Assembly (NCBI GenBank): GCA_051005355.1 | Contig: JBPCJL010000105.1 | Location: 1-60,046 of the forward strand | Length of the DNA stretch: 60,046 nt | Direction: 5' to 3' | Origin: Ilumatobacteraceae bacterium | GTDB lineage: Bacteria > Actinomycetota > Acidimicrobiia > Acidimicrobiales > Ilumatobacteraceae | Shown here: piece by piece, positions 13,691 through 48,177 of the stretch | How positions within the stretch are numbered: the first letter of the stretch is position 1 | Layout of the letters: the number at the start of each line of letters is the position of its first letter | Notes under the pieces: model-generated | Seen by the model: the letters and a program-made list of their open reading frames with translations, nothing else | The model's database searches: none | What the model was told of the DNA's origin: nothing | Translations under genes and position numbers: made by a program

Positions 13691-13736
13691 CGACCGTTCG
13701 GCCCGCCTGGGCAGCGAGCACGACCCAGCCCGAGCG

Positions 13737-20267: not shown

Positions 20268-20304
20268 CGTTGTCGCGAGAGTCTTGACGTCCCCGGCGCC
20301 GATG

Positions 20305-20319
20305 GTTACCGTTGGTAAC
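20305..20319. promoter_or_regulatory. Inverted repeat GTTACC-gtt-GGTAAC abutting the diiron oxygenase start codon (candidate TetR operator)
   Basis: Perfect 6-bp arms with a 3-bp spacer, ending 1 nt before ATG 20320. The TetR gene is immediately upstream. Confidence 0.3.
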
Positions 20320-23738: not shown

Positions 23739-23762
23739 CGGACCTCCCGGGCGCGCCCGAGG

Positions 23763-25393: not shown

Positions 25394-25409
25394 GGGACGG
25401 ACGTGCCGG

Positions 25410-28314: not shown

Positions 28315-28334
28315 CGGCGCGTCGGAGACCAGGC

Positions 28335-29585: not shown

Positions 29586-29689
29586 GTCGGTTCCCCCTGG
29601 CTCAGGTCGCCGGCCGCAACCGGCTGGATCGGGCACCCTACGGCTCGTGCCGGCGCCGCTTCCGTCGCCCCCCGACGGATCACCGCACA

Positions 29690-29701
29690 CATACCGGTAT
29701 G
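29690..29701. promoter_or_regulatory. Perfect 12-bp palindrome CATACCGGTATG plus an extra ATACC half-site, in the divergent promoter region
   Basis: cATACCGGTATgaATACCact at 29690-29710, in a locally AT-richer stretch 40 nt upstream of the Gfo gene ATG (29740) and ~105 nt upstream of the SBP gene start. Confidence 0.3.
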
Positions 29702-29739
29702 AATACCACTGCCCGACTGTACGTTAGGGTGCGAAGCGC

Positions 29740-30867
29740 ATGCAAGGGTCCGCCGAGACGCTCGCCCGTCCGGTGCGGGTCGGGTTCGTGGGCTCGGGCA
29801 GCGTACTGTCGGCCTACCTCCGCCTCGTCGATCAGCTCGTCCCGCGTGGCCTGGCCGTCGAGAGCGCCATCTGGGTGCGCGACCCCGAACGGCGCACCGA
29901 GCTGACGGCACGGCGCCCCGCTGGTCGCTACGTCGACGAGCTCGACGACGTGCTGGCCGGCGACGCCGACGTCATTGCCGTGATCACGCCCCCGCACCTC
30001 CACGCCGAGCACGTCACCGCCGCGCTCGAGGCCGGCAAGCACGTCCTCTGCGAGAAGCCGATCGCCATGACCCGCGATCAAGCCGTGCCGCTCTACGAGC
30101 TGGCCGAGCGCCGGGGGCTGCGACTCGTGGCGGCGCCGTTCGTGCACCTGTGCCCGACGCTGCGCCACCTCTGGGCGCAGGTCAGCGCCGGGGAGATCGG
30201 TGACGTGCACGCAGCGCGGGCGCTCTACGGGAACCCGGGCTCGTCGTGGTCGCGGTGGTTTCACGAGACCGGCGTCGGGCCCCTGCCCGAGGTGGGCATC
30301 TACAACCTGAAGACGCTGGCCGTCCTGCTCGGCCGCGTCGCCGAGGTGATCGCCGTGGAGAGCCGTAGCACGACGGCTCGCGTGGTCGGCGGCGAGCGGA
30401 TCGAGGACCCGGACCCCGACGGGTTCCAGCTCCTTCTCCGCCACGAGGCCGGCGCCGTCTCGGTGGTGACGGCGAGCCATGCCATCCACCAGTACCGCCG
30501 TCCCGCTGCCGAGCTCTATGGCACGCGGGGCACGGCCAACCTGCTCGGTGACGACTGGGACCCTTCCGGCTTCGCGATCTGGACCACAGCGACCGGCGCG
30601 TGGACCGAGCACGACGCCATCGACCGGACCTGGCCGTGGACCGACGGCCTGCGCGATCTCGTCGTGGCCGCACGCGAGGGTCGGGCACCGACCTCGTCGG
30701 CGTCGCTCGACCTGCACCTGCTCGACATCGTCGATGCGGCGAGATCGTCAGCGTCGACCGGCCACTGCGTCGAGCTGACGTCGACGTTCGAACCGGTCGA
30801 CATGACCCACACGGTGCGCCACGGCGTCGCCGTCCACGACCACACCCGTCCGGCGGACGAGCAGTGA
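29740..30867 (+). CDS. Gfo/Idh/MocA-family oxidoreductase
   Basis: Rossmann VRVGFVGSGSV and HVLCEKPIAMT (EKP motif). Confidence 0.85.
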   Translation: MQGSAETLARPVRVGFVGSGSVLSAYLRLVDQLVPRGLAVESAIWVRDPERRTELTARRPAGRYVDELDDVLAGDADVIAVITPPHLHAEHVTAALEAGKHVLCEKPIAMTRDQAVPLYELAERRGLRLVAAPFVHLCPTLRHLWAQVSAGEIGDVHAARALYGNPGSSWSRWFHETGVGPLPEVGIYNLKTLAVLLGRVAEVIAVESRSTTARVVGGERIEDPDPDGFQLLLRHEAGAVSVVTASHAIHQYRRPAAELYGTRGTANLLGDDWDPSGFAIWTTATGAWTEHDAIDRTWPWTDGLRDLVVAAREGRAPTSSASLDLHLLDIVDAARSSASTGHCVELTSTFEPVDMTHTVRHGVAVHDHTRPADEQ

Positions 30868-31553
30868 CCATCGATCGGGAGGTCGAGTCGGACGGCAGCG
30901 GGATCGACCCCGGGCTGGTGTACATCGAGATGATCAGCCGCCGCCCCGGCGTCGGCCTGCACGAGTTCCACGCCGTCGCCGGCATGGGGCAATCGGGCTG
31001 GGGCGACGAGTACGGCGACGACATCGCGGTGCTCAACGTGGGCCGCACCTGGCGAATGGGCGAGGAGCCGGAGTACCTGTGCGCCTGGTACAGCCCCGGC
31101 CACGGGCTCGAGCGAATCGACGAATGGGAAGCCACGTTCGCCTCCGGCGCCGCCGACCGGTTCGAGGAACCGTTCCGGATCGCCGCCCGGATCGATCGCG
31201 CCGGCTGCTACGTCCCGCTCCTCGAACCCGTGGTCGGGACGGCCGGCCGCTACTACGCCGAGTGGTTCGACGTCGCGCCGGGCCGGTCACGCGACGACGT
31301 GGCCGACGGGTTCCGCCACCGCCGAGAGCGCCATGGGGCGCTGACGCTGAACCTGCTCGTCGACCGAATCGGGCTGCTCGGCCCGGCGCCGCGCGGCCTG
31401 GCCGTGTGGGGCGTGCCGTCGTGGGCCGCGGTCGCCGAGATCGCCGAGGACCTGACCGGTGACTTTGACGGTGACGGTGACGACGGCGCGATGCGGCCGG
31501 TCCGCCTGGTCAGTGCGTCGTTCTACGCCGACTTCGGTCGCGAGCAGTTGTGA
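30864..31553 (+). CDS. Hypothetical protein (two similar halves; possibly tandem EthD/NIPSNAP-like alpha/beta-barrel domains, which is inference only)
   Basis: 3' part of ORF 30600..31553(+). GTG 30864 overlaps the Gfo stop (GTGA). Sequence is non-repetitive with high GC3 and an acidic DGDGDD insert near the C-terminus. Confidence 0.55.
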   Translation: MTIDREVESDGSGIDPGLVYIEMISRRPGVGLHEFHAVAGMGQSGWGDEYGDDIAVLNVGRTWRMGEEPEYLCAWYSPGHGLERIDEWEATFASGAADRFEEPFRIAARIDRAGCYVPLLEPVVGTAGRYYAEWFDVAPGRSRDDVADGFRHRRERHGALTLNLLVDRIGLLGPAPRGLAVWGVPSWAAVAEIAEDLTGDFDGDGDDGAMRPVRLVSASFYADFGREQL

Positions 31554-31617
31554 GCGAACCGCACCCGAGTGTTGGCGGGAGCCCGTCCCGCCGGCCACCG
31601 ATCGGCCAGGTCGCCGC

Positions 31618-32388
31618 GTGACCACTGCTCGGCTGGCTGGTCGCGTGGCCCTCATCACCGGGGCGGGCGTCGGCATCGGGCGGGCCGTCGCCGTTCGCCT
31701 CGCCGAGGAGGGCGCCGACGTCATCGTCACCTCGCGCACGTTGGCCAACGCCGACGAGACGGCGGCCGAGGTCGAAGCGGCCGCCGGACAGGCACCGGCG
31801 ACGCACGCCCTCGATGTCGCCGACCGGTCGGCGATCGACCGGGTGGTCGGCGACGTCGTGGCCGCGAAGGGACGCATCGACGTCGTCGTGGCCAACGCCG
31901 GCGTCGACCTGCCCCGCGGCCCATCAGTGGAGGCAACGACCGACGACGAGTGGGACCATGTGTTCGAGGTCAACGTCGGTGGCATGTTCCGCGTCGTGCG
32001 GGCCGCGCTGCCAGCGATGCCGGCGGGCGGCTCCATCGTCACCGTCGGTTCGATCAACTCGTTCATCGCGTGGCCCAACAACGCGGCGTACACCGCCACC
32101 AAGGGCGCCGTTCTGCAGTTCACGCGCGCCATCGCCCTCGAGCTGGCGCCACGGGGCATCCGGGCCAACTGCGTCTGCCCCGGCGTCATTGACACGCCGC
32201 TGACTCGCTCGTTCCTGCAGGGCGACGACGCCACACAGCTCGAAGCCGAGTACGCCGCGATCTCGCCGATGAACCGCATGGGCACGGCCCGCGAGGTCGC
32301 CGACGCCGTGCTGTTCCTCGCCTCCGACGAGGCCACGTTCATCACCGGCTCCGCCCTGATGGTCGACGGCGGAACCACCGCCCGCTGA
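31618..32388 (+). CDS. Short-chain dehydrogenase/reductase (SDR)
   Basis: Trimmed to GTG 31618 (VTTARLAGRVALITGAGVGIGRA). NAG, and the YTATKGAV (YxxxK) motif. Confidence 0.85.
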   Translation: MTTARLAGRVALITGAGVGIGRAVAVRLAEEGADVIVTSRTLANADETAAEVEAAAGQAPATHALDVADRSAIDRVVGDVVAAKGRIDVVVANAGVDLPRGPSVEATTDDEWDHVFEVNVGGMFRVVRAALPAMPAGGSIVTVGSINSFIAWPNNAAYTATKGAVLQFTRAIALELAPRGIRANCVCPGVIDTPLTRSFLQGDDATQLEAEYAAISPMNRMGTAREVADAVLFLASDEATFITGSALMVDGGTTAR

Positions 32389-32391
32389 GCG

Positions 32392-33156
32392 CTACCAGAC
32401 GCCGCCCAGCGCCGCCGTCACGGCCTCCCCGTTGACGGCGGTGGCGTCGTCGCTGGCCAGCCACACGATCACGCGAGCGATCTCCTCCGGCTCCAGCACG
32501 CGGCCGCGCGGGTAGTGGGCGTCGTGCTCGGCCCACACGAGTTCGGGCGAGGTCGATCGCGTCGCCGCCTCGTGCTCGACGTCGATTTCGGCCATCGGGG
32601 TGCGCACCCAGCCTGGCAGCACAGCGTTGCAGGTACCGCCGAACGTCCCGACGTCGTGGGCGACGGAGCGCATGAGGCCGAGCAGCCCGTGCTTGGAGGC
32701 GCAGTAGGCCGCCATCTCCGGGGCCCCGAGTTGCCCCGCGGTCGAGCTGGTCATGACGACACGCCCCCACCCGCCCTGGCGCATGTCCAGCGTGCACGCC
32801 CGCGTGAGCAGGAATGCGGCGTCGAGGTTGATCGCCATCGTCGCCCGCCACTCGGCCGGGTCCTGATCCCAGATCGGGCCCTCGGCGAACCAGCGGCCGG
32901 CGTTGCTGACGAGGATCTCCACCGGGCCGAGCCGGCGCCTCGTCTCGCCCACCGCGTGTGCGCACCCCTCGGGGTCCTCGAGCGATGCGACGCAGTGGGC
33001 GACGCCGGTCTCCTCGGTCAACACCGTCAGCTGTTCGGCGTCGTGGGACACGGCCATCACCTGCGCCCCGCGCGCGGCGAGGAGGATGGCCGTCGCCCGT
33101 CCGATGCCCGAGCTACCGCCGGTGACCAGCGCGACACGGCCTTCCATCCCCGTCAC
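32392..33156 (-). CDS. Short-chain dehydrogenase/reductase (SDR)
   Basis: VALVTGGSSGIGRA, NAG, YCASKHGL. The stop lies 3 nt from the stop of the convergent SDR gene. Confidence 0.85.
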   Translation of the reverse strand: MTGMEGRVALVTGGSSGIGRATAILLAARGAQVMAVSHDAEQLTVLTEETGVAHCVASLEDPEGCAHAVGETRRRLGPVEILVSNAGRWFAEGPIWDQDPAEWRATMAINLDAAFLLTRACTLDMRQGGWGRVVMTSSTAGQLGAPEMAAYCASKHGLLGLMRSVAHDVGTFGGTCNAVLPGWVRTPMAEIDVEHEAATRSTSPELVWAEHDAHYPRGRVLEPEEIARVIVWLASDDATAVNGEAVTAALGGVW

Positions 33157-33932
33157 GGGACGAGCACCTCATCCTGCGGAGGTGGCCCGTGCACCGCCTC
33201 GTGCAACCTACGGACGGTCTCCGCAGGGTCGGGCGATCCCCAGACGTTGCGCCCGAAGGCGACGCCGGCGGCCCCCGCCGCGCAGGCGCGTCGAACGGCG
33301 GCGAACATCGCTTCGCGATCATCGGCCGGATCACCACCGGCCAGCACCACCGGGACACCGAACGCGTTCGTTTCCCTCATGGCGTCGGGCGTCGAGGGCA
33401 TCGTTGTCTTGATCACGTGGGCGCCCAGCTCGGCGCCAACCCGGCAGGCGGCGACGATGGCGAGCGGTGCGCTCGGCTCAGGAAAGCGCTCGCTCTCGAC
33501 GGGCATGATCTCGCAAACGTACGGGACGCCGGCGCGATCGGCGGCGGCCGCCACGGCGGCGGCGTTGCGCAGCGCCTCGAGCTCGAACGGCGCGCCCAGC
33601 TGGACGAAGGTCAGGACCGCATCGGCGCCGAGTCGGGTCGCATCGTCCAAGGTCCACGCCAGCGAGTACTCAGAGACGGGGTAGCTGCCACCGACGGCGA
33701 CGGTCGTCAGGTCGAGCTTGAGGATCGTCGCGCACGTGCCAAAGACGGGCCGCTCATCCCGCAGGCTGCCGTAACTGCAGATGATCGCGTCGGCACCGGC
33801 GTCCACGACCGTGCGGATCACCGCCCGCCGATCCTCCAGGCCGGCGCACGGCCACGAGTAGAGCGGGTGGTCCACGGCGACGACGACGATGCGGCCGCCG
33901 TCCCCGAGCAGCGTGCGGCGGAGGTCGGTCAC
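33153..33932 (-). CDS. Class I aldolase, DhnA/LsrF/FbaB-like family
   Basis: Trimmed to GTG 33932 (GTGA overlap). VVAVDHPL, GADAVLTFV, and HVIKTTMP (candidate Schiff-base Lys), then VVLAGG. The family call rests on overall resemblance. Confidence 0.7.
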   Translation of the reverse strand: MTDLRRTLLGDGGRIVVVAVDHPLYSWPCAGLEDRRAVIRTVVDAGADAIICSYGSLRDERPVFGTCATILKLDLTTVAVGGSYPVSEYSLAWTLDDATRLGADAVLTFVQLGAPFELEALRNAAAVAAAADRAGVPYVCEIMPVESERFPEPSAPLAIVAACRVGAELGAHVIKTTMPSTPDAMRETNAFGVPVVLAGGDPADDREAMFAAVRRACAAGAAGVAFGRNVWGSPDPAETVRRLHEAVHGPPPQDEVLVP

Positions 33933-34903
33933 GGGATGAACACCGACTTGAGCACGGTCGACGACGACCGGCCGACCAGCGCGTCCTCGAGATCGTCGAA
34001 CGAGCAGTGGTCGGTGACGAGCTGTTCGAGGGGCAACGTGCCGCCGGCGATCAGCTCGACAGCCTCGTCGTACCAGTGCCGGCGCTGGTTGGGCGGCGTG
34101 CCGATCCACTCGCTGCCGACCAGGGCGACCTCACGGTAGTGCAGGACGTTGAGGTCGATCGTCATCAGTTGACGATCCCCGAACCCGGCGAAGAGCACGA
34201 CCCGCCCGCCGTTGGCCGCAGCGTCGATGCACGACGGGACCAAGTCGGGGTCACCGGTGCACAGCACCACCGACGCTGCGCCGCCGTCGAACCGTTGACG
34301 CACCTTGGCGACCCAGCCATCGGGCTCGACGGCGTCGATCGCCCCGAGCTGGCGCGCCAGTCGCCGGCGCTCCTCCTGGGGCTCCACCGCCACGACGGCC
34401 ACGCCGGCCTGCGCGGCGACGGCGATCGTCATGAGGCCCATCGAGCCGGCGGCGACGACGGCCATCGACGAGCCCGGCGACGCCGCCGCCTGGTCGAAGC
34501 AGGCGTGCAGGCAGTCGGCGAGGGGTTCGACGAAGACGGCGCGATCCGTCGGCACGCCATCCGGTACCCGCACCGCACCGCACGACCACCCGTCGGCCTC
34601 GCCGCGCACGATGTTGAAATCGGCATAGCCGCCGTAGGTGTCGCCGTACACCCGCTCGCCGGCGGCCCACCCGCTCACCTCCGGTCCGACCTCGGCGATC
34701 CGCCCGACCCACTCGTGGCCGGGGTTGAACGGGTACTCACCATCGTTCACGCCGACGCGGTACTTGCGGGCGTCGGTCGCGCACACCCCGTTGGCCTCGA
34801 CGCGCACAAGCAGCTCGCCCGCCGATGGTGATGGGCGGGGCACGATCTCGGTGCGCAGGTCACCGATGCCGTGCAGTCGGCAGGCCCGCATGGTGACTGT
34901 CAT
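33929..34903 (-). CDS. Zinc-dependent medium-chain alcohol/polyol dehydrogenase
   Basis: GVCATDARKY, GHEWVGRIAEVG, and the nucleotide loop VVAAGSMGLM. Confidence 0.85.
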   Translation of the reverse strand: MTVTMRACRLHGIGDLRTEIVPRPSPSAGELLVRVEANGVCATDARKYRVGVNDGEYPFNPGHEWVGRIAEVGPEVSGWAAGERVYGDTYGGYADFNIVRGEADGWSCGAVRVPDGVPTDRAVFVEPLADCLHACFDQAAASPGSSMAVVAAGSMGLMTIAVAAQAGVAVVAVEPQEERRRLARQLGAIDAVEPDGWVAKVRQRFDGGAASVVLCTGDPDLVPSCIDAAANGGRVVLFAGFGDRQLMTIDLNVLHYREVALVGSEWIGTPPNQRRHWYDEAVELIAGGTLPLEQLVTDHCSFDDLEDALVGRSSSTVLKSVFIP

Positions 34904-36189
34904 CGCGCGTCGAGCGCGTCGAGCGCGTGGAGGCGGTCAGCGAGCGTGTCGTACAGACCGCGGCGGATCTCGGCGAGGTGCGCGAGGCGGGCATGGCGGG
35001 ACGGGTCCGGGTCGATCGAGCACGCCGGCGCCAGCTCGATTGGGTGACCGAGGGCGGTGAGGGCGAGCACCGCCGCGCCCCGGCCGCTGTCGAGGTCGAA
35101 GGCGTCGAGCGGCGCGCCGAGGGCGTCCGCCAACGAATGAGCCAGCGCCACGTTGCGTAGGGCGCCCCCTGCGGCCCGCCAACGTGCCACCTCGCCGCTC
35201 ACCGGTCGCAGTCGTTCGGCGATGTCGGCGGCGGCCAGCGCGACCGCGTCGATGACGGCGCGGTAGAGGTGGATCCGGTCGGTGCGGGCGGTAAGCCCGA
35301 GCACGAGGCCGCGAGCCCGATCGTCCCAGATCGGCGCCCGCTCCCCGTCGAGGTGGGCCAGGGCGAGGAGTCCGCCGGCACCCGGACCGGCGTCGTGGGC
35401 CGCGTCGGCGAGATCGCCATGGTCGAGCAGGTCAGCGGCCCACTCGATCGCGGAGCCGGCGGTCGAGGTCCACCCGCCGACGAACTGACCCGCGCCAACG
35501 TGGGCGACGGAGCGCAGGCCGTCCGGGACGGCCGGTGCGTCGTCGGCGATGACACCGAGGACGAGCGTGCTGCCGACGAGCAGGCCGGCGTCGCCGGCGT
35601 CGACGGCGCCAATGGCACGGAGGTCGACGAACGAGTCGTAGGTCCCCACGACCACGGGCGTGCCCGCCGGCACGCCGATCACGCCCGCCGCCGCAGCGCA
35701 CACCTCGCCGGCGATCGCCGTCGGCTCGAGCGGGTCGGGCCGGGCGACGATCGAGCCACGGTGGTCCTCGGCCGTGATCCGGTCCATCACCGGGCGGCCG
35801 ACGAGCGCCGACACCAGCGCACCGGTGGCGTCGAGCTGCCATGCGCTGGCCGTCGGTTCGGTGCGCGCAAGCGCCGCTGCGACCTGGCGGACGGGGTCGT
35901 CGCTCGACAGCAGCTCGCCGGTCCACACCGGCTGCAGGTCCTCGTCGACGAGTACGGGCAGCGGTCCGAAGGCGCCGATCGCCAGTGCGCCGACGCCGCC
36001 CTCGATGCGAGCATCGGCGCAGGCGGCCCGGACCGCGTGGCCAGCGTCGCGCAACCACTCGTCCGGTGTTCCGAGGCCGGCCGGTCGAGCCGCCCGTCCC
36101 GCCCCGACCGTGATGCCGCGCTCGTCGACGACTGCGGCTCGCGCCCCGGAGACGCCGACGTCGACGCCAACGACGAGCTCGCCGTTCAT
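34900..36189 (-). CDS. FGGY-family carbohydrate kinase
   Basis: Trimmed to MNGELVVGVDVGVSGARAAVVD (ATG 36189). GGWTSTAGSAIEW and the second actin-fold half AAGGALRN. Confidence 0.85.
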   Translation of the reverse strand: MNGELVVGVDVGVSGARAAVVDERGITVGAGRAARPAGLGTPDEWLRDAGHAVRAACADARIEGGVGALAIGAFGPLPVLVDEDLQPVWTGELLSSDDPVRQVAAALARTEPTASAWQLDATGALVSALVGRPVMDRITAEDHRGSIVARPDPLEPTAIAGEVCAAAAGVIGVPAGTPVVVGTYDSFVDLRAIGAVDAGDAGLLVGSTLVLGVIADDAPAVPDGLRSVAHVGAGQFVGGWTSTAGSAIEWAADLLDHGDLADAAHDAGPGAGGLLALAHLDGERAPIWDDRARGLVLGLTARTDRIHLYRAVIDAVALAAADIAERLRPVSGEVARWRAAGGALRNVALAHSLADALGAPLDAFDLDSGRGAAVLALTALGHPIELAPACSIDPDPSRHARLAHLAEIRRGLYDTLADRLHALDALDAR

Positions 36190-37283
36190 CCTTCGACCGG
36201 CACCAGCGCCAGCTCGAGGCGGATGAAGCCGGCCGTGCTCTCGTCCAGCGTGCCCAGTGGTCGCTCGCGCACCGACGCGACGACGGTCGGATGCTGGACC
36301 GTGGACGTCGCGACGTCGAGGACGCGGCGCACGATTGCTCTCGCCAGGTGCACGCCGAGGCAGAGGTGCGGCCCGGCGCCGAAGGAGAGGTGGCGGTTGG
36401 GCGTGCGTCGGAGGACGCATTCGTCGGGTCGTTCGAAGACGCTCGGATCACGGTTGGCCTCGCGGAACCCGAGGGCGACGGGCGTGCCGGCGGCGATGGC
36501 ATGCTCACCGAGCCGCGTGTGCTGGGTGGTGACGCGGGCGATCGCCGGCAGCGGCGTCACGATGCGGATCAGCTCGTCCGTCGCCGTCTCGAGCACGCTG
36601 CGGTCGGCGACCAACGCGTCCCAGTGCTCCCGGTGGCGGGCGAGGTGGAACAGCGCTCCGGCCACGGCATCGCTCGTCGTGTCGCGCCCTGCGCCGAGCA
36701 CGAGCGTGGCGAGGCCACGCAGCTCTGCCGCGGTGACGGCGCGACCCAGCCTGGCGAAGAGGTCGTCGCCCGAGGAGCGATCACGCGCGGCGACGAGCTG
36801 GTCGAGGTAGTCGTCGAAGTCGGCGTTCGCCCGGTCGGCCGTGTACACGAGCTTGCCCCACGACCGCCAGCGCGATTCGTCCTGCGGCCGCCCGGTCAGG
36901 TCGGTCAGGGCGCGCACGAAGACCGGGACGGTCAGCTCTCCGACCACCTCGAGGGTGCCGCGCTGGGCTGCTCGTCTCATGATCTCGCCTACGTGCGATC
37001 TGATCGCGTCATCGATGCGGGCGATGCGGCGCCGATCGAAGTGTTCGACCAGCAGCGCCCGGTAGACACCGTGGCGCGGCGGATCGCTCTCCAGCGGGAG
37101 CTGGGCGTGCGTGCGCACGGCCCGTTCGTCGGGGATGGGGACGCCGGCGACGATCGCCGACGAGAAGCGCCGCCAATCGATCGCCGCCGCCCGCACATCC
37201 GCGTAGGACCGCAGGTGGGCGTAGGAGCAGCGCCCGAGCGGCGAGTCGACGACGAGCGTGTCGAGTTCCTTCGACTCGTTCAA
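36186..37283 (-). CDS. Cytochrome P450 (short, ~365 aa)
   Basis: I-helix LGAGRDTTS, ExxR in ETATDELIR, heme loop FGAGPHLCLG. The only start compatible with the upstream gene is TTG 37283, in a TTGA overlap with the Gfo stop. Confidence 0.8.
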   Translation of the reverse strand: MNESKELDTLVVDSPLGRCSYAHLRSYADVRAAAIDWRRFSSAIVAGVPIPDERAVRTHAQLPLESDPPRHGVYRALLVEHFDRRRIARIDDAIRSHVGEIMRRAAQRGTLEVVGELTVPVFVRALTDLTGRPQDESRWRSWGKLVYTADRANADFDDYLDQLVAARDRSSGDDLFARLGRAVTAAELRGLATLVLGAGRDTTSDAVAGALFHLARHREHWDALVADRSVLETATDELIRIVTPLPAIARVTTQHTRLGEHAIAAGTPVALGFREANRDPSVFERPDECVLRRTPNRHLSFGAGPHLCLGVHLARAIVRRVLDVATSTVQHPTVVASVRERPLGTLDESTAGFIRLELALVPVEG

Positions 37284-38437
37284 GGTCGCAGTGGCGCCAG
37301 TTCGAACGTGGTCGTGAGCGGCTGGGTCTGACCGGTCTCGGCGGCCCGGTAGCCGCTCTCGATGATGTCGACGACGTGCCGGGCGTGCTCGGCCGTCGCC
37401 TCCGACGCCACGCCGTCGCGCACCCAGCGCACGAGCTGCATGATGTCCTCGAACACGTGCGACTCCGCGATCTCGAGGTGCGGACCAGTGACGTGGTCGA
37501 GCACGCGCATCTGGCCCTCCCAGTCCTCCGACGACGCACCCATCGTGCGCTCCTTGCGCTCGTAGTCGATCTCGACGCCGTTCAGCTGGAGGCCGGCCAG
37601 CGTGCCGGTCGTGCCGAAGAACGTCGTGGCGCCGAAGTCGCCCGGCAGCGCCTCCGCCGACGCCGTCCCGTAGGCCACGACGAACCGACCGGCGCCGAAG
37701 TCGAGCAGCAGGACGCTGTTGTCGTCGGCGTCGACGCCAACCTCGGCGCCGGCGAAGCTGCGCACGGGCAGCACCTGACCGGACATCGCCGTCACGGCGC
37801 GAGCGGGACCGAGGATCCCGGTCAGCTGGTGCAGCGCGTAGACCGTCATGTCGTAGAGCGGTCCACCGCCGGGCTTGCGGAAGTACCACGTCGGGTCGAT
37901 GGTGGTGCCGCCGGGTGCATCGGTGCGCTCCGGCTCCTCCTCGTGGTACACCCCGAACGCACACCCGCAGACGCCCCAGGCCAGCCGCCCGATGGCGCCG
38001 TCATCGAGCAGGCGCCGGATCGCCTTGACCTGCGGCCGCAGCACCTCGCCTGGCGAGGCGACGATGCGCAGGTCGCGCGCTCGCGCCAACTTGATCAACG
38101 CGTCGGCCTCGGCGACGGTGGTGGAGATCGTCTTGTTCACGTGCAGGTGCAAGTCAGCTTCGAGCACCTTGCGACCGTGCTCGGCATGCAGGCCGATCGG
38201 CGTCACGAGCGTCACGGCGTCGAGCTCGGCCTGGGCGAGCATCTCGTCGAGGTCCCCGTAGGCCTTGGGGACGTCGAACATCTTCGCCGCCGCAGTGGCC
38301 CGATCGAGGTCGTGGTCGCAGACGGCCGCCACGGTCAGCCGGTCGGCGACGTCGGGCTGCGTCAGGTGGGGCAGCACGGCCCGCAAGGTCAGGGTGCCGA
38401 CGCCGGCGATGCCGATCCGTGTCGGTGGTGAGGTCAT
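37280..38437 (-). CDS. Gfo/Idh/MocA-family oxidoreductase (EKP motif replaced by NKT)
   Basis: RIGIAGVGTL Rossmann start. HLHVNKTIS at the usual EKP position. 385 aa. Confidence 0.8.
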   Translation of the reverse strand: MTSPPTRIGIAGVGTLTLRAVLPHLTQPDVADRLTVAAVCDHDLDRATAAAKMFDVPKAYGDLDEMLAQAELDAVTLVTPIGLHAEHGRKVLEADLHLHVNKTISTTVAEADALIKLARARDLRIVASPGEVLRPQVKAIRRLLDDGAIGRLAWGVCGCAFGVYHEEEPERTDAPGGTTIDPTWYFRKPGGGPLYDMTVYALHQLTGILGPARAVTAMSGQVLPVRSFAGAEVGVDADDNSVLLLDFGAGRFVVAYGTASAEALPGDFGATTFFGTTGTLAGLQLNGVEIDYERKERTMGASSEDWEGQMRVLDHVTGPHLEIAESHVFEDIMQLVRWVRDGVASEATAEHARHVVDIIESGYRAAETGQTQPLTTTFELAPLRP

Positions 38438-39537
38438 TGGCGGAACGCTCCTTCGGTCGAGCCGATGGCGCTGAAGGTCGTCGTGAGGTCGGCGGCGACA
38501 CCCTCGGTGGCCGATCGGTCAGCGGCATGGACGATGTCGATCACGTGCGTGGCGTGTTCCGCCGACAGCACGTTGGAAGTACCGCTGAGCACGCAATCGA
38601 CGAGGTGGGCGACGCCGAGCAGGTGATCCGGCCCGTCGGCGCGCGCTTCGGGAAGGTGCTCGTCGGTCCAGCTACTGCCGTCGTGAACGCGCAGCGGCGC
38701 CGTCATGTCGATCAGTTGAAAGGCGATCGTGCCGGTCTCACCGTCGAGCTCGACGTCCGGGGTCGCCGAAGCGCCGAGGGTGGCGAAGTCACTGCGCACG
38801 GTGGCCACCGCCCCGCAGTCGAAGCGCAGGGTCACGTGCCAGGTGTCGTCGACGTCGACCGGGATCGTCCGGCCGCCCATCGATCCGTCGAGCTGGACGA
38901 AGTCCGCGCGGGATCGCGTCGCCATCGCCGTGACACGCCGCACCGGGCCGAGCAGCCCGGTGAGCGCGTGCAGCGGGTACACGCCGATGTCGACGAGCGG
39001 TCCGGATCCGACGGCGAAGAAGGGCGACGGGTCGCTCTCGTAGCCGGCCCACGGCGGCAGTCCGCCGAGGAACTGGCCGGTGGCGTTCCACACCGAACCG
39101 ATGGCGCCGGCGGCGAGCAGCTGTCGCGCCCGCGCGACCTGTGGGAAGACCATCACCGAGGGTGCGCAGACGAGTACCACGCCCTGGCGCTCGGCGGCGG
39201 TGGTGAGCTCGACGGCCTCGGGGACGGTCGGGGCGAACGGCTTCTCGCTGTACAGGTGGCGCCCCGCTTCGATCGCGGCCCGGTTGACGTCTCCGTGCAG
39301 CCGCGCCGGCGTGAGGTTGACCACGGCATCGACGTCGTCCCGGGCCAGCAGTTGCTCGTAGCCGGCACAACTGGCCGGGAGGGCGAACCGTTCGGCGACG
39401 GCCGCCGCTCTGCGCCCGTCGCTCGAAGCGATGGCCACGATGCGAGCTCGCGGATGGAGGCGGTGCGCCTCGGGCAGGTAGTCGCGCGTCGCCACGTCGC
39501 CGGCACCGACGACGCCGATGCGCAGCTCGTCCGTCAC
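38434..39537 (-). CDS. Gfo/Idh/MocA-family oxidoreductase
   Basis: ORF 38434..39624(-). GTG 39537 gives MTDELRIGVVGAGDVA. HLYSEKPFAP. ATG 39624 would add 29 atypical residues. Confidence 0.8.
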   Translation of the reverse strand: MTDELRIGVVGAGDVATRDYLPEAHRLHPRARIVAIASSDGRRAAAVAERFALPASCAGYEQLLARDDVDAVVNLTPARLHGDVNRAAIEAGRHLYSEKPFAPTVPEAVELTTAAERQGVVLVCAPSVMVFPQVARARQLLAAGAIGSVWNATGQFLGGLPPWAGYESDPSPFFAVGSGPLVDIGVYPLHALTGLLGPVRRVTAMATRSRADFVQLDGSMGGRTIPVDVDDTWHVTLRFDCGAVATVRSDFATLGASATPDVELDGETGTIAFQLIDMTAPLRVHDGSSWTDEHLPEARADGPDHLLGVAHLVDCVLSGTSNVLSAEHATHVIDIVHAADRSATEGVAADLTTTFSAIGSTEGAFRQ

Positions 39538-39642
39538 GACGCCATCGCCGGGTTCGACCTGGCCGACGGTCCGCCCACCTCCGTCGAGGCGGCACGATGC
39601 ATCGACACTGCGGCAGCCTGCCATGGCGCGACGCGAGGGTCA

Positions 39643-39675
39643 ACAACTGGTCTGCATTGGTCTCAGACCAGTTGT
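39643..39675. promoter_or_regulatory. dre-like (HutC/GntR-type) operator array: ACAACTGGTCTG-N9-CAGACCAGTTGT with nested TGGTCTcAGACCA
   Basis: Perfect 12-bp arms (39643-54 / 39664-75). There is a third TGGTCT half-site at 39658-63, 1 nt from AGACCA (39665-70). The half-sites equal the DasR/NagR-type dre half-site ACTGGTCT as I recall it. Located between the divergent Gfo operon and the ROK kinase gene. Confidence 0.5.
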
Positions 39676-39711
39676 CAATGGCGGAGCGCAACGTCGTGGG
39701 AGGATCGTCGG

Positions 39712-40527
39712 ATGGCGACGGCGATCGGCATCGACGTCGGAGGGACGAAGATCGCCGCCGGCCTCGTGGAGGTGGAGACGGGCCGGATCAGCGAGGCGGT
39801 GGTGGTGCTCACGCTGGCGTCGCGCCCGCCGATCGAGATCCTGCGCCAGTGCGTGGCGATCGCCGCCGATCTCGCCGATCACGCGCCCGCCCGCCCCGTC
39901 GCCATCGGCATCGGCGTGTGCGAGCTCGTCGGCCGGGATGGCCGCATCACCAGTGCCAACAGCTTCGACTGGCGCACGCTCGACGTCGCTGCTGCGTTCG
40001 CCGCGCTCGGTCCATGCCGTGTCGAGTCCGACATGCGTGCCGCCGCCCGCGCCGAGTCGTGCGTCGGTGCCGGGGCGAGCTTCGAGTCGTTCCTCTACGC
40101 CGGCGTCGGGACCGGCGCGGCGTGTGCGCTCGTCGACGGCGGCGTCGTGCGCGTCGGCGCTCGCGGCAACGCAACATACCTCGGGACACCGGCGCTGGAA
40201 CCGCGCAGCGGCGGCGCCGAGCTGAACCGGCGTTTCGGCGCTGACCTCGACGGTGCGATGGACGATCCCGCCGTCGCCGAGGCGATCGCGCGTGCCGCCG
40301 CCGATGTCGGCGAGGCGATCGGCATCGTCGTCAACGCCGTCGACCCGGACGCCGTCGTCGTGGGTGGCGGCCTCGGGACGAACGAGCGCTACTTCACCTG
40401 GCTCGAGGCTGCGGTGCGGGCGACGATCTACGCACGCGATACGGCCCAGCTGCCGATCGTGCGATCCACCCTCGGCGGCTACGCCGGTGTGATCGGCGCA
40501 GCCATGGCGGCGTGGGATCATCTGTGA
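39712..40527 (+). CDS. ROK-family sugar kinase (no N-terminal HTH)
   Basis: 3' part of ORF 38419..40527(+). ATG 39712 with gggagga 7 nt upstream. IGIDVGGTKIAAGLV. 271 aa. Confidence 0.85.
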   Translation: MATAIGIDVGGTKIAAGLVEVETGRISEAVVVLTLASRPPIEILRQCVAIAADLADHAPARPVAIGIGVCELVGRDGRITSANSFDWRTLDVAAAFAALGPCRVESDMRAAARAESCVGAGASFESFLYAGVGTGAACALVDGGVVRVGARGNATYLGTPALEPRSGGAELNRRFGADLDGAMDDPAVAEAIARAAADVGEAIGIVVNAVDPDAVVVGGGLGTNERYFTWLEAAVRATIYARDTAQLPIVRSTLGGYAGVIGAAMAAWDHL

Positions 40528-40725: not shown

Positions 40726-40836
40726 ATGCGCCAAGCGTTGCTGTTCATCGATCCGGGACTTGATGCCGATCTGAAGGACGTGACGCGAATTGGCGACGTT
40801 GAACTTGGGGATCCTGGCGCACGTCGACGCCGGTAA
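40726..40836 (+). promoter_or_regulatory. Candidate leader-peptide uORF (36 codons) overlapping the start of the ribosomal protection gene
   Basis: AGGAGG (40715-20), 5 nt, then ATG 40726. Encodes [36 protein letters not shown] and stops at TAA 40834-36, 47 nt into the TTG-started main ORF in another frame. It has unusually many A/T-ending codons for this genome. Confidence 0.25.
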
Positions 40837-42787
40837 GACCACCCTCACCGAACGGCTGCTGCACGCGGCTGGGGTCATCGACGAGATCGGTCGCGTCGAC
40901 GACGGCACAACGCAGACCGACTCGCTCGCCCTGGAGCGCCAACGCGGGATCACGATCAAGTCCTCCGTCGTGTCCTTCGTGGTCGACGGCGTGACGATCA
41001 ACCTCATCGAAACGCCTGGACACCCAGACTTCATCGCCGAGGTCGAACGCGTGCTCGGCACCCTCGACGGCGCCGTCCTGGTCGTTTCGGCGGTCGAGGG
41101 CGTGCAGTCGCAGACGTTGCTGCTGTTTCGCGCGTTGCGCCGGCTCGGCGTGCCCACGGTCGTGTTCATCAACAAGATCGACCGAGTCGGCGCCGACGGC
41201 CAACGAGTGCTCGCAGCCCTCGCGAAGCGCCTCGCCGCGAAGGTCCTGGCGATGGGGGCGCATTGGGGCGTCGGCACGAAACGAGCCGGCGTCGCATCGC
41301 ATCGGCTTGACGATCCGACCTTCGCCGAGGCTGCCATCGAGGTGCTGGCCACCAACGACGACGCGATCCTGCACCGTTACCTCGACGAGGCATCGATCGC
41401 TCCCGGCCCACTGGGCGAGGCGCTCACCGCACAGACGGCGCTACTGCAGATCGTGCCCGTGTACTTCGGCGCGGCCCTGACCGGTGTCGGCGTCGAAGAT
41501 CTCCTGCACGCGATCCCCAAGCTGCTGCCCTCCGTCGAGGGCGAGTGGACGGGACCGGCGTCCGGGGCGGTGTTCAAGATCGAGCGGGGACCGAGCGGCG
41601 AGAAGATCGCCTTTGTGCGCATGTTCTCCGGGACACTACGGACGCGGGATCGCCTTCAGCTCGGCGTCGACGTCGAGACCGTCACCGCGATCGAGGTCTT
41701 CGATCGCGCCACGACGCAGTCGCGTCCGGCGACCCATGCGGGCGAGATCGCCAAGGTCCACGGACTCTCGACCGCACGCATCGGCGACACCTTCGGCCCG
41801 AGCGCCCGCACCATCGACCAGCACGCCTTCGCCCCACCCACCCTGGAAACTGCGATCGCCCCCCGGCGCGAGGGCCAGAAGCGGGCCGTGTTCGAGGCGC
41901 TCACCGAACTCGCCGAACAGGATCCGCTCATCAACCTGCGCCAGGACGACACCCGACAAGAGCTGTACCTGTCGCTGTACGGAGAGGTGCAGAAGGAGAT
42001 CGTCGCCCAGACACTGGCCGGTGACTACGGACTCGACATCGACTTCCGACCGACGACACCGGTCTGCATCGAGCGACCGGACTGCGTCGGCGCAGCCGTC
42101 GAACTGCTCCGACCTGGCCGGTCGCCGAGCCATCCGTTCCTGGCCACCGTCGGCTTGGAGATCTCGCCACTGCCGCCCGCCTCGGGCGTGACCTTCGAGC
42201 TCGCCGTGAATGTCAAGTCGATCCCGATCCACGTCTTCGACAGCGTCGACGCGTTCCGTCAGCTCATGCAGCGCACCGTTCTCGACACGCTGCGCCAAGG
42301 CATCCACGGCTGGGCGGTCACCGACTGCCGCGTCGTCATGACCGACTGCGGCTACCGGGCACCGCCGCGCAAGTGGCCCGGCACGACCCTGTCGGACTAC
42401 CGGCTCCTCACGCCGCTCGTGCTGATGGCGGCGCTGCAGCAGGCCGGCACGACCGTGCTCGAACCCGTCCTCGAGTTCCATGTGAAGTTCCCCGTCCAAG
42501 ACCTCGGCCCGATCATGTCGATCCTCAGGGAACTCGAAGCCCACCCCCGCTCGCCGAACACGAACGGCTCGATCTCCGTGCTGGAGGGCGTGATCCGGGT
42601 GGCGCCGTTCCATCAGCTGCAAACACGGCTCCCCGAACTCACCCGCGGCGAGGGCGTCATCGAGTCTGCGTTCGCCGGCTACCGCCCGGTTCACGGCGCG
42701 CCCCCTTCCCGCCCACGGACCGACCGCAACCCGCTCGACCGGGTCGACTACCTCCGCCGCGTCACCCGCCCATCCCTGCTCACGTGA
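40790..42787 (+). CDS. Tet(M)/Tet(O)/OtrA-like ribosomal protection GTPase (EF-G paralogue)
   Basis: TTG start. [20 protein letters not shown] (G1), [22 protein letters not shown] (G3), INKIDR (G4). 665 aa and collinear with Tet(M) through domains IV and V ([10 protein letters not shown]..., [12 protein letters not shown]). Confidence 0.85.
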
Positions 42788-42805
42788 CCCTAAGGTGCAA
42801 CGCCG

Positions 42806-44913: not shown

Positions 44914-44917
<4 letters not shown>
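42806..44917 (+). CDS. glgE: Alpha-1,4-glucan:maltose-1-phosphate maltosyltransferase
   Basis: [48 protein letters not shown] lies 8 nt upstream of ATG 42806. Confidence 0.9.

Positions 44918-48173
<3,256 letters not shown>

Positions 48174-48177
<4 letters not shown>

Follow-up and report, generated by a model that had tools for sequence, protein, structure and literature searches.

A carbohydrate-type cytochrome P450 inserted into a conserved, probably catabolic operon of uncultured soil Actinomycetota

What a cytochrome P450 does in an operon that otherwise encodes a sugar-type kinase, an aldolase and four dehydrogenases is the question raised by positions 32392–39537 of the window, the whole 60,046-nucleotide (60 kb) stretch of DNA analyzed here. 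A sequence-only reading had proposed an uncharacterized catabolic or tailoring gene set, possibly acting on an O-alkylated sugar, polyol or cyclitol. The best explanation that we can offer, held with about even confidence, is a conserved six-gene catabolic core together with an inserted P450 that would demethylate a methyl-ether form of the substrate.

All seven minus-strand reading frames are open, and at each of the six junctions the start codon overlaps the upstream TGA by 4 nt (ATGA, TTGA, ATGA, ATGA, GTGA and GTGA). The six consecutive overlaps noticed in the sequence-only reading recur identically in an independent gene call for the same DNA in a public assembly, which deviates only at the start of the first gene, GFO1 (ATG at 39624, 396 aa). 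GTG at 39537 is the better start, because the orthologue in related locus L088 begins at the equivalent codon and the upstream ATG of L088 is out of frame. For the P450, the N terminus of the nearest homologue, which likewise begins MNE..., backs the rare TTG start. A simple scan for consensus promoters and terminators inside the operon came back empty, and the seven genes read as one translationally coupled operon within a larger catabolic locus. Of 14 same-strand junctions in 21 kb of the independent gene call, 9 are 4-nt overlaps (3 of 8 outside the operon); such overlaps are common in this genome, and the run of six points to a tight operon but is not extraordinary in a high-GC actinobacterium. 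The stoichiometric co-expression earlier deduced from the overlaps was an over-reading, as such overlaps are the norm here and no proof of stoichiometry.

Pfam and profile searches, together with the nearest solved relatives, agreed with the family first assigned to each of the seven products. GFO1 (38434–39537, minus strand; 367 aa; PF01408/PF22725/PF02894) is a Gfo/Idh/MocA oxidoreductase with an EKP motif, whose closest relatives of solved structure, KijD10 3-ketoreductase, levoglucosan dehydrogenase and DgpA, work on sugar C3 and whose orthologues occur in L088 (74%), L172 (58%) and L086 (48%). GFO2 (37280–38437, minus strand; 385 aa), placed by Pfam in the same family, has NKT replacing EKP, as had been noticed earlier; its orthologues (L171, 91% over a C-terminal fragment; L088, 85%; L172, 75%) keep NKT and D-x3-Y-x2-H, and among solved proteins it is closest to scyllo-inositol/l-glucose dehydrogenase and DgpA. 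The FGGY-family carbohydrate kinase (34900–36189, minus strand; 429 aa) combines a strong C-domain match (PF02782, 3.8e-19) with a weakly matching, divergent N domain, in which the motif G-x-D-x-G-x-SGAR is kept in orthologues. Its best family matches, XylB and gluconokinase, fall far under cut-off, and it has only 88 homologues, all metagenomic. The MDR (Zn-dependent) dehydrogenase of polyol-dehydrogenase type (33929–34903, minus strand; 324 aa; PF08240/PF00107/PF16912) is closest among solved proteins to 4ej6, l-threonine dehydrogenase, sorbitol dehydrogenase and ketose reductase; its translation, read by eye, appears to hold the catalytic Zn ligands and to lack the four-Cys structural Zn loop (orthologues: L171, 82%; L172, 69%; L086, 65%). 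The class I (Schiff-base) aldolase of DhnA/LsrF/MJ0400 type (33153–33932, minus strand; 259 aa; PF01791; orthologues: L091, 75%; L086, 67%) has MJ0400, Thermoproteus FBP aldolase and LsrF as nearest solved relatives. Its K175 aligns with the lysines at chain positions 184 of MJ0400 and 205 of LsrF, which we take to be the Schiff-base lysines. SDR1, a short-chain dehydrogenase (32392–33156, minus strand; 254 aa; PF13561/PF00106), ends the operon and has orthologues in L091 (77%) and other loci (54–65%).

The seven-gene string is not the full functional locus that it had been taken for. Comparison with related sequences places it in a conserved catabolic locus of ~18 kb (22833–40527) in uncultured soil Actinomycetota, which also takes in an importer, a regulator and a further operon. 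Divergent from GFO1 lies a ROK-like ASKHA kinase (39712–40527, plus strand; 271 aa; PF00480) that starts with the nucleotide-binding motif GIDVGGTK, without the Cys zinc motif CxCGxxGC or a DNA-binding domain; orthologues take the same divergent position in L088 (68%) and L172 (48%). The convergent plus-strand operon begins with a third Gfo/Idh/MocA oxidoreductase identified by Pfam, GFO3 (29740–30867; orthologues: L091, 72%; many loci, 52–59%), followed with a 4-nt overlap by the conserved protein HYP229 (30864–31553, plus strand), which matched no family in Pfam or NCBIfam. HYP229 has 325 homologues; the 120 among the matches listed come from Actinomycetota metagenome-assembled genomes and metagenomes, are 57–73% identical and mostly ~204 aa long. 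Its AF2 model (pLDDT 86) predicts a tandem ferredoxin-like alpha+beta barrel, for which Foldseek matched HemQ/Cld and 2pgc at a TM of only 0.5–0.7 and ~10% identity; no His or Cys is invariant in the family. The short-chain dehydrogenase SDR2 (31645–32388, plus strand; Pfam and gene call) stops 3 nt from the opposite-strand stop of SDR1, passes a broad SDR subfamily model of NCBIfam, which is not an equivalog, and has orthologues in L091 (88%), L003 (80%) and L086 (69%).

On the minus strand, an ABC importer (25410–29585; Pfam, coordinates partly from the gene call) comprises a PotD/PotF-like binding protein (28335–29585), with only polyamine binders among its nearest solved relatives, two permeases (27373–28296 and 26543–27373) and an ATPase with a TOBE domain (25410–26546), with orthologues in L086 and L091 (65–86%). 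Next to it are an EamA-family membrane transporter (24569–25480, minus strand; PF00892; orthologues: L091, 67%; L086, 46%), given as the longest ORF with its start uncertain, and a GntR/HutC-family regulator with a UTRA domain (23763–24572, minus strand; L086, 66%), whose ATG, read from the sequence, overlaps the EamA stop by 4 nt. The closest NCBIfam models of the regulator, PhnR, HutC and PhnF, are all under cut-off. The importer operon ends with a bicupin protein of 301 aa and two Cupin_2 domains (22833–23738, minus strand), without an NCBIfam or PDB sequence match and with an orthologue (56%) in both L086 and L106. In the divergent ROK/GFO1 promoter region lies the perfect palindrome TGGTCTGAGACCA (39658–39670), the sole perfect site within the window, kept in the equivalent intergenic region of L088 as ACTGGTCTCAGACCGGT. 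In our view it resembles DasR/HutC-type operators, and it is a candidate operator for the GntR/HutC regulator.

In the three closest relatives, L171, L088 and L172, the order GFO1–GFO2–FGGY–ZnADH is maintained, with a spacer of 42–100 nt at the place of the P450. Because this short GFO2–FGGY spacer holds no P450, the gene is a lineage-specific insertion between GFO2 and the FGGY kinase of a conserved six-gene operon (GFO1, GFO2, FGGY kinase, MDR dehydrogenase, class I aldolase and SDR), and the seven genes do not form the single evolutionary and functional unit first supposed. The ~18-kb locus recurs in soil Actinomycetota metagenomes, with the P450 almost always absent (lacking in all three close relatives and in the 29 related loci that are at least 5 kb long). 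P450s 47% identical to that of the window do occur in a rearranged version of the locus (L003 and L004), adjoining HYP229, SDR and Zn-ADH orthologues. L003 has its P450 at the head of a sugar ABC importer operon that runs divergently from the FGGY kinase; P450 and importer genes form a single same-strand string there, and the binding protein is of sugar type, not PotD-like. The L004 arrangement is more fragmented, and L089 is the P450-less counterpart; the truncated L104 is a third case, with another P450 beside the same gene set. Binding proteins vary among locus variants (PotD-like, SBP_bac_1 and SBP_bac_5), so the variants may import different compounds. Related loci also carry a NagB/Pgl-like gene (Pfam Glucosamine_iso), and AP_endonuc_2, split transketolase or ThDP E1 subunits are found in some variants.

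The P450 itself (36186–37283, minus strand; 365 aa, TTG start; PF00067) is of carbohydrate type. A pseudogene had been considered; the gene is intact, with all catalytic motifs present (Cys308, ExxR and I-helix D201-T202), its sequence is identical in two independent assemblies, and GC content and codon use match the neighboring genes. The best PDB match is P450ZoGa (6G5O/6G5Q; 37% identity; E 3e-52 versus 1e-39, and 181 versus 140 bits, for the next solved P450), the 6-O-methyl-d-galactose demethylase (PMC6292453), in which Glu62, Arg66 and Gln70 hold the sugar hydroxyls and mutation of the Glu, Q70 or L267 abolishes binding. This polar triad is retained as E53/R57/Q61, L267 as L245 and the heme Cys as C308, which lends independent support to the guess of an O-alkylated substrate. 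Four hydrophobic contacts of ZoGa are altered (V58P, F73L, G220A and M270I, at P49/L64/A198/I248), and in ZoGa binding is lost with V58A and with F73A; 6-O-methyl-galactose was therefore rejected as the ligand, also in view of the 37% identity, and the chemistry could differ from that of ZoGa. Assignment to CYP236A was likewise rejected, as the hydrophobic contact residues differ from those of ZoGa. The B-C loop motif (V/I)PIPxExxxRxxxQxPxExDPP is common to the clade of the window and to P450s 46–51% identical to ZoGa, and is absent from more distant P450s. Homologues in Acidimicrobiia occupy heterogeneous gene contexts, so the clade is not bound to one pathway. Marine P450 systems need ferredoxin and ferredoxin-reductase partners, which are encoded beside the P450, whereas the 60-kb window encodes neither; no formaldehyde-detoxification gene was evident in it either.

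Taken with the locus, these features suggest that the P450 most likely O-demethylates a methyl-ether form of a sugar, polyol or cyclitol-like substrate and feeds a dehydrogenase/kinase/class I aldolase route, the substrate class and the demethylation being what we infer. A hydroxyl-rich compound of this kind, perhaps amino-bearing, would be imported by the adjacent ABC system. If the compound bears a methyl ether, the P450 would hydroxylate its methyl group with O2 and with electrons supplied by a ferredoxin system whose genes lie elsewhere, and collapse of the hemiacetal would give formaldehyde and the free hydroxyl compound. In the order of core steps that we infer from family analogy, the Gfo/Idh/MocA pair would perform NAD(P)-dependent keto-sugar chemistry on the unmasked compound, probably at C3; the FGGY kinase would phosphorylate the product, and the MDR dehydrogenase would yield a ketose phosphate or diketone phosphate. 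Cleavage by the aldolase would then release a triose phosphate and a short carbonyl fragment, the latter to be converted by the SDR.

The P450 might also serve the locus by other chemistry, either hydroxylating an unactivated C–H bond (for instance at the terminal methyl group of a deoxy sugar, or at a ring carbon in a cyclitol or carbocycle) or N-demethylating an N-methyl amino sugar or amino polyol. The remodeled hydrophobic half of the ZoGa pocket, the amine-binding PotD/PotF family of the importer's binding protein, the NagB/Pgl-like gene of related loci and the in vitro hydroxylation of cyclohexane by a CYP236A member (PMC11910816) would suit such a role. We nevertheless consider it unlikely: methoxy-sugar O-demethylation is the sole physiological role demonstrated in this lineage, ZoGa being the only known sugar-demethylating P450, the triad positioning sugar hydroxyls is retained, and L003, the other P450-bearing variant, lacks a PotD-like binding protein. 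Nor does the P450 look like a co-transcribed passenger in the GFO2–kinase spacer, with no pathway role and perhaps inactive without dedicated redox partners. Its absence from so many relatives and the missing redox partner genes fit this reading, yet both P450 junctions are exact 4-nt overlaps, the composition is fully native, the catalytic motifs are intact, and the same-clade P450s of L003 and L004 and the further one in L104 form a pattern unexpected for a random passenger, so that we find it quite improbable. Actinobacterial P450s, besides, commonly use ferredoxins encoded elsewhere.

That the locus is a diverged version of a characterized pathway, with only the P450 new, is very improbable. 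The candidates would be inositol iol or Thermotoga IolG/M/N/O, rhizopine moc, Lsr AI-2 processing, d-apiose, levoglucosan or another 3-keto-glycoside route, and erythritol/threitol. Families overlap (Gfo/Idh/MocA dehydrogenases, GntR, and AP_endonuc_2, transketolase or ThDP E1 subunits in some variants), and an LsrK-like FGGY kinase and LsrF-like aldolase accompany a ferredoxin-fold protein, presumably the fold of LsrG. However, IolE/D/B/C, MocC/D/E/F, LsrG proper, RuBisCO-like proteins and AP_endonuc_2 are absent from the window, the conserved HYP229 family is without named relatives, and none of the seven operon proteins or the five flanking locus proteins scanned reached an NCBIfam equivalog cut-off, the seven falling far short of every such model (IolG, 69 of 355 bits; levoglucosan dehydrogenase, 91 of 650; LsrF thiolase, 100 of 297; IolM, 97 of 450; XylB, 96 of 380). 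The earlier dismissal of Lsr, rhizopine and levoglucosan routes was right in that none is orthologous and too sweeping in that Lsr, rhizopine and 3-keto-sugar systems are the closest analogies for parts of the locus. Orthology of the whole gene set to a characterized pathway was not found, and a literature search returned no equivalent, in keeping with the uncharacterized gene set first proposed. A cluster that makes or tailors a product, an aminocyclitol or a modified sugar for example, would accord with an aldolase that has ADH synthase and the bagremycin/ferroverdin aldolase BagB/FevI among its best family matches, with the P450s and multiple dehydrogenases common in such clusters, and with the EamA transporter, of a family that often exports. 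It is barely credible here, because the locus encodes a binding-protein-dependent ABC importer, in L003 in one string with the P450, and a GntR/HutC regulator with a candidate operator, two kinases and an aldolase that suit catabolism; the Pfam-scanned genes at 22833–40527 include no glycosyltransferase, aminotransferase, cyclase, NRPS or PKS.

The locus appears catabolic in character, and its sugar-type P450 was probably acquired to make the methylated form of the compound that it handles usable as well.

Seven open frames run along the minus strand from 39537 to 32392 and encode, in this order, two Gfo/Idh/MocA oxidoreductases (GFO1 and GFO2), a cytochrome P450, an FGGY kinase, a Zn-dependent alcohol dehydrogenase of the MDR type (Zn-ADH), an aldolase and an SDR (SDR1). 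The 4-nt overlaps recorded in the sequence-only reading were recovered at all six junctions, each start codon overlapping the upstream TGA (ATGA, TTGA, ATGA, ATGA, GTGA and GTGA along the operon), and the same six are present in the public gene call for this DNA. The window has a G+C content of 69–75% and is matched by the soil-metagenome assembly GCA_965611675.1. The sole difference in the public call is a GFO1 start at ATG 39624. The GTG at 39537 originally proposed is better supported, because the orthologue in the related locus L088 begins at the equivalent codon, preceded by a Shine–Dalgarno-like GGGGAG, and in L088 the conserved ATG further upstream lies in a different frame. Also conserved upstream of GFO1 is CCATGGCAGGCTGCC, with the inverted repeat GGCAG-N-CTGCC (window 39612–39626, minus strand; L088 7597–7613); since its ATG shares the GFO1 frame in the window but not in L088, a regulatory or 5′-UTR element is more likely than coding sequence. 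The TTG start of the P450 agrees with the N terminus of its nearest homologue.

The 4-nt overlap is the commonest junction type in this stretch (9 of 14 same-strand junctions in the public gene call, and a further ATGA beyond those that joins the EamA and GntR genes), so six in a row indicate a compact operon and no anomaly. The genes are probably translationally coupled, and nothing firm on stoichiometric co-expression, which had been read from the overlaps, follows from so common a junction. A simple scan for promoter and terminator consensus sequences was negative within the operon, and scans for Rfam families, tRNAs and consensus promoters or terminators returned nothing. At its distal end, SDR1 converges with SDR2 on the plus strand (31645–32388), the stops lying 3 nt apart (32388–32392) with no terminator-like hairpin between them; overlap or collision of the two convergent transcripts would thus be unavoidable.

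The seven genes are only part of the actual unit. Orthologues of the block from a bicupin gene (22833) to a ROK-like kinase gene (40527) occur together in a related locus, L086, at 34–73% identity; no FGGY gene was seen in L086, whose retrieved sequence ends inside the Zn-ADH gene. In the window, this block comprises a minus-strand importer operon (PotD/PotF-like binding protein, two permeases, ATPase, EamA, GntR/HutC regulator and bicupin), a plus-strand operon of a third Gfo/Idh/MocA gene (GFO3), HYP229 (30864–31553) and SDR2 whose end is separated by 3 nt from that of the seven-gene operon, and the ROK-like kinase gene (39712–40527, plus strand, 271 aa), divergent from the seven-gene operon. 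Neither NCBIfam nor PDB sequences gave a match to the bicupin. When metagenomes were scanned with the HYP229 family, 80 loci came back, 29 of them at least 5 kb long, and a core set recurs in many of these 29: the importer, GFO3, HYP229, SDR2, SDR1 and sometimes the aldolase, Zn-ADH and FGGY genes. None of the 29 carries a P450. The variants differ in their binding-protein families, and the L086 type carries AP_endonuc_2 lyase/hydratase partners that the window does without. In some variants, ThDP enzymes stand beside HYP229 (L089 17352–19297, L003 695–2646 and L142 11548–13478), either as E1 alpha/beta-like subunits or as a split transketolase with an IclR regulator. No aldolase was seen in the ThDP-bearing L089 and L003, and the ThDP enzymes hint at an alternative carbon–carbon cleavage step.

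HYP229, which belongs to no Pfam or NCBIfam model, gave 325 homologues; the 120 listed are 57–73% identical and mostly about 204 aa long. Its gene always lies beside Gfo/Idh/MocA and SDR genes, in the window as in the family loci L085–L170. The AF2 model is a tandem ferredoxin-like alpha+beta barrel with distant matches to HemQ/Cld/2pgc-like folds. A haem protein was ruled out, as the TM-scores are modest and no His or Cys is invariant across the family, in which many Arg, Glu, Tyr and Trp residues are.

The likelier regulator of the locus is the GntR/HutC gene (23763–24572, minus strand), which is embedded in the importer operon, as its ATG overlaps the EamA stop (ATGA, 24569–24572). The ROK gene was considered as the operon repressor and rejected: its product matches PF00480 at 99 bits with the kinase-type nucleotide-binding motif DxGGT at the N terminus, and the lack of both an HTH domain and the Cys zinc motif (CxCGxxGCxE) makes it an atypical ASKHA kinase-like protein. 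A 13-nt perfect palindrome, TGGTCTGAGACCA, lies in the ROK/GFO1 divergent promoter region (39658–39670). It is conserved in the orthologous intergenic region of L088 (about 7551–7567) and resembles HutC/DasR-type operators; it is unique in the window, with no second copy upstream of the importer or GFO3 operons.

Every family assignment of the sequence-only reading was borne out by Pfam, NCBIfam and comparison with solved structures, and none of the seven operon proteins approached an NCBIfam equivalog cut-off (IolG 69 of 355 bits, LgdA 91 of 650, IolM 97 of 450 and XylB 96 of 380; for the aldolase, LsrF 100.2 of 297 and ADH synthase 133 of 299). GFO1, GFO2 and GFO3 all have the N-terminal Rossmann and C-terminal alpha/beta domains of the Gfo/Idh/MocA family. 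GFO1 carries the EKP motif, and its nearest solved relatives act at sugar C3 (the 3-ketoreductase KijD10, levoglucosan dehydrogenase and DgpA). In GFO2, NKT replaces EKP and is kept in all orthologues examined, which indicates a functional variant and not decay. The kinase scored 69.7 bits against FGGY_C and 17.3 bits against FGGY_N (cut-off, 28.8); its divergent N-terminal phosphate-loop motif (GxDxGxSGAR) is conserved in orthologues, many of which match FGGY_N, and all 88 homologues are from metagenomes or MAGs. The Zn-ADH falls in the polyol-dehydrogenase branch, with threonine dehydrogenase, sorbitol dehydrogenase and ketose reductase. The aldolase belongs to the DeoC/LacD TIM-barrel fold family (PF01791, E value 1.5e-27), and its K175, conserved in orthologues, aligns with Lys 184 of the MJ0400 chain and Lys 205 of the LsrF chain, which we take to be the Schiff-base lysines of these enzymes. 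In another related locus, L090, the FGGY kinase and Zn-ADH are called as one 679-aa protein (P0292, 10001–12040). This fusion may be real or a frameshift artefact of a long-read assembly with many fragmented genes; if real, it would support consecutive kinase and Zn-ADH steps.

The P450 is an insertion into a conserved operon. In the three closest loci, GFO2 is followed by a spacer and then the kinase gene, with no P450; the spacer is 100 nt in L171 (identity to the window of 91% for a GFO2 fragment, 66% for the kinase and 82% for Zn-ADH), 84 nt in L088 (GFO1 74%, GFO2 85%, kinase 63% and ROK 68%) and 42 nt in L172 (GFO2 75%, kinase 53% and Zn-ADH 69%). In the window, the P450 occupies exactly this position with a 4-nt overlap on each side, and it is identical in two independent assemblies. 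There is no compositional signal of a recent horizontal transfer: the gene is indistinguishable in composition from its neighbours. The faster divergence of the kinase raised the possibility that it had arrived together with the P450; this was rejected, as the kinase is also the least conserved shared gene in the P450-less L171 and L088 and the second least in L172. P450s 47% identical to that of the window are also present in L003 and L004, where the locus is rearranged; L089 is their counterpart without a P450. The L003 P450 gene heads an ABC importer operon of sugar type and lies next to orthologues of HYP229, SDR and Zn-ADH and a fragmented FGGY gene, and in L104 the order HYP229–SDR–FGGY is followed by a convergent truncated P450. 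That the locus has taken up this P450 clade in two different arrangements favours a functional link over a passenger gene. No representative genome carrying the complete seven-gene set emerged when genome contigs were scanned with the P450 and all locus proteins were then searched by tblastn, L005 alone sharing nearby GFO1 and GFO2 homologues, and the P450 sub-clade alignment retrieved no relatives from metagenomes. The family-enrichment contexts of ten P450 loci, nine of which encode the sugar-type B–C loop motif, were heterogeneous and uninformative.

The best PDB match of the P450 was 6G5O/6G5Q (E value 3e-52, 181 bits; next match, 140 bits), the structures of P450ZoGa from Zobellia galactanivorans, which catalyzes the oxidative demethylation of 6-O-methyl-D-galactose (PMC6292453). 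In P450ZoGa, Glu62 and Gln70 hydrogen-bond the sugar hydroxyls, Arg66 tunes Glu62, and Val58, Phe73, Leu267 and Met270 form the hydrophobic side of the pocket (Robb et al. 2018, PMC6292453). Mutation of most of the contact residues abolished binding, and the B–C loop was proposed as a signature of carbohydrate-active P450s (PMC6292453); the contacts V58, E62, Q70, F73, L267 and M270 are absolutely conserved in its family, CYP236A (Robb 2018, PMC6292453). The window P450 keeps E53, R57 (equivalent to R66), Q61, L245 (equivalent to L267) and the haem Cys308. Four hydrophobic contacts differ (V58 to P49, F73 to L64, M270 to I248 and G220 to A198), and the absolute conservation of the six contacts thus does not extend to this protein. 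Its loop motif, (V/I)PIPxExxxRxxxQxPxExDPP, is common to the window clade and to P450s 46–51% identical to P450ZoGa and is absent in more distant P450s. The haem loop (F301-G302-x-G304-x-H306-x-C308-x-G310), the ExxR motif (E237-x-x-R240) and the I-helix G199-x-x-T202 with D201 are all present; in a 32-sequence alignment these motifs are invariant except for D201, which is invariant in the four closest homologues. Identity to P450ZoGa residues 33–349 is 35.7% by tblastn and 37% by local alignment, below the thresholds of about 40% for a CYP family and about 55% for a subfamily. With the polar residues and loop motif kept and the hydrophobic positions changed at 37% identity, the P450 is, as judged from these positions, of a carbohydrate-binding type yet not a CYP236A member, and its predicted ligand is not 6-O-methyl-galactose. 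Most reports of CYP236A concern Bacteroidetes and Gammaproteobacteria, its metagenomic matches being confined to aquatic samples; in vitro, one member acts as a cyclohexane hydroxylase (PMC11910816).

In the pathway that we propose, the importer would take up a hydroxyl-rich compound. Where this carries a methyl ether, the P450 would hydroxylate the methyl group to release formaldehyde and the free hydroxyl compound. The conserved route would then begin with keto-sugar chemistry by the Gfo/Idh/MocA pair, whose two paired genes suggest an oxidise-then-reduce scheme. The FGGY kinase would phosphorylate the product, the coupled polyol-type MDR dehydrogenase would oxidise the phosphorylated compound, and the class I aldolase would give triose phosphate and a short carbonyl compound to be handled by the SDR; the ThDP E1 and split transketolase variants fit a cleavage next to a carbonyl. 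The order of these steps is put forward with low confidence. A PotD-like binding protein hints at an amino substituent on the substrate, which is weak evidence because other locus variants use different binding-protein families.

We consider the locus very probably catabolic. For the P450 as a predicted O-demethylase feeding it, the case is evenly balanced: set against the likeness to P450ZoGa are the changed hydrophobic half of the pocket, the heterogeneous contexts of the wider clade and the failure to find redox-partner or obvious formaldehyde-detoxification genes in the window. No ferredoxin, Rieske or adrenodoxin motif was found in the window, L003 or L004, Pfam scans of most other large window ORFs likewise gave no redox partner, and motif and Pfam scans of most large ORFs in the 60-kb window gave no obvious formaldehyde-detoxification gene. 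The earlier failure to match the gene set to a characterised route still stands: there was no match at the equivalog level, and the literature searched describes no equivalent, its incomplete coverage making this weak evidence. That literature contained no bacterial pinitol demethylation; in Erwinia, iol genes degrade pinitol without demethylation. The boldest reading is more tentative, and we hold it as a possibility somewhat short of even: soil Actinomycetota would have an undescribed pathway for some abundant compound rich in hydroxyl groups, perhaps a cyclitol, polyol or sugar with amino or methyl substituents, with HYP229 as a new enzyme that lacks named relatives and, in the lineage of the window, the recruited P450 as a new carbohydrate O-demethylase family that extends the pathway to a methylated substrate.

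Several known systems share parts of this arrangement. The CYP236A enzymes of marine Flavobacteriia (P450ZoGa and P450FoAg) are the best solved relatives of the P450 by about 40 bits, with similar lengths (365 aa in the window versus 387 aa) and equally long unaligned C-terminal tails. In both systems, the P450 gene lies among carbohydrate-utilisation genes with a Zn-dependent alcohol dehydrogenase encoded nearby, although the window Zn-ADH belongs to the P450-less core and is therefore not P450-specific. The hosts differ (a soil actinobacterium versus a marine Bacteroidetes or Gammaproteobacterium), as do the settings (a dehydrogenase/kinase/aldolase operon versus a polysaccharide utilisation locus), and the ferredoxin and ferredoxin-reductase genes that adjoin the P450 in the marine systems are not found in the 60-kb window. 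The closest conceptual match to a demethylase added to a cyclitol or sugar route, by analogy, would be the catabolism of rhizopine (3-O-methyl-scyllo-inosamine), a cyclitol bearing both a methyl and an amine group, by Sinorhizobium mocCABRDEF, which involves import via a binding protein, demethylation by an oxygenase, subsequent Gfo/Idh/MocA oxidation and a GntR-superfamily regulator. There, however, demethylation is by MocD/E/F (a non-haem oxygenase, a Rieske ferredoxin and a reductase) and no P450. MocC (AP_endonuc_2) is absent from the window, as are the iol genes used in the downstream steps, and the window regulator is HutC-type whereas MocR is MocR-type (MocR model, 27 of 650 bits).

The combination of an FGGY kinase, a DhnA/LsrF-type lysine enzyme and a ferredoxin-like alpha+beta-barrel protein (HYP229, of the same general fold class as LsrG) may recall the LsrK/LsrG/LsrF logic of AI-2 catabolism, in which a keto or diketo compound is phosphorylated, rearranged and cleaved to triose phosphate and a C2 unit. 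The transporter differs from that of Lsr, and five to six dehydrogenases are encoded in the locus; the LsrF model reaches only 100 of 297 bits, and HYP229 is a tandem protein of 204–229 aa with no LsrG sequence match. The 3-keto-sugar enzymes (LgdA, DgpA, the Bacteroides 3-dehydrogenases BT2158/BT2159 and KijD10) are the nearest solved relatives or models of GFO1 and GFO2, but the scores lie far below equivalog cut-offs and the NKT of GFO2 is unusual. In polyol-phosphate routes (galactitol-1-phosphate 5-dehydrogenase GatD; erythritol kinase EryA), phosphorylation by a kinase precedes a dehydrogenase step on the polyol phosphate, much as the FGGY kinase gene here adjoins, and is probably translationally coupled to, that of a polyol-type MDR dehydrogenase. 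GatD orthology is absent (66 of 550 bits), and the window aldolase is class I DhnA-type whereas the gat route uses a class II tagatose-bisphosphate aldolase.

Elsewhere in the window, the gene for an EF-G paralogue (665 aa) immediately precedes an alpha-glucan cluster with glgE, treS–pep2-like and alpha-amylase-family (CBM48) genes (40790–49985, plus strand), and the whole looks like ordinary housekeeping unrelated to the locus. A TetR regulator gene is followed by one for an AurF-like di-iron N-oxygenase (19656–21234, plus strand; PF11583, E value 7e-44). Genes for an FAA-hydrolase, an aldehyde dehydrogenase, a LigB-type extradiol dioxygenase and a gamma-glutamyl hydrolase-like Peptidase_C26 (9539–13927) form a probable aromatic or amine catabolic module. 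On the minus strand (381–3427), a 2OG-Fe(II) oxygenase gene with a long open frame upstream of its domain adjoins a gene for a PLP-dependent (PALP) enzyme.

The P450 is what is new: its kinship with the marine sugar demethylase is distant, and both its host group and its genetic context are new. Around it, the pathway consists of ordinary enzyme families plus one highly conserved family, HYP229. To our knowledge, P450s have hardly ever been described in primary carbohydrate catabolism, the one established case being the marine 6-O-methyl-galactose demethylase. The finding is not in itself surprising, but it is a good lead that can be tested. If the proposal is true, this would be the first carbohydrate-active P450 O-demethylase outside marine degraders of algal polysaccharides. 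On land, plants and microbes are rich sources of methylated cyclitols and sugars, and a distinct, related P450 in a soil actinobacterial operon raises the prospect that removing methyl ethers oxidatively from sugars, polyols or cyclitols could be a more general strategy there. The P450-bearing and P450-less loci offer a clean handle on the substrate, as a methylated compound should need the P450 and its unmethylated counterpart should not. The locus is widespread in soil metagenomes and carries an unannotated, highly conserved family, so that solving it would annotate hundreds of genes.
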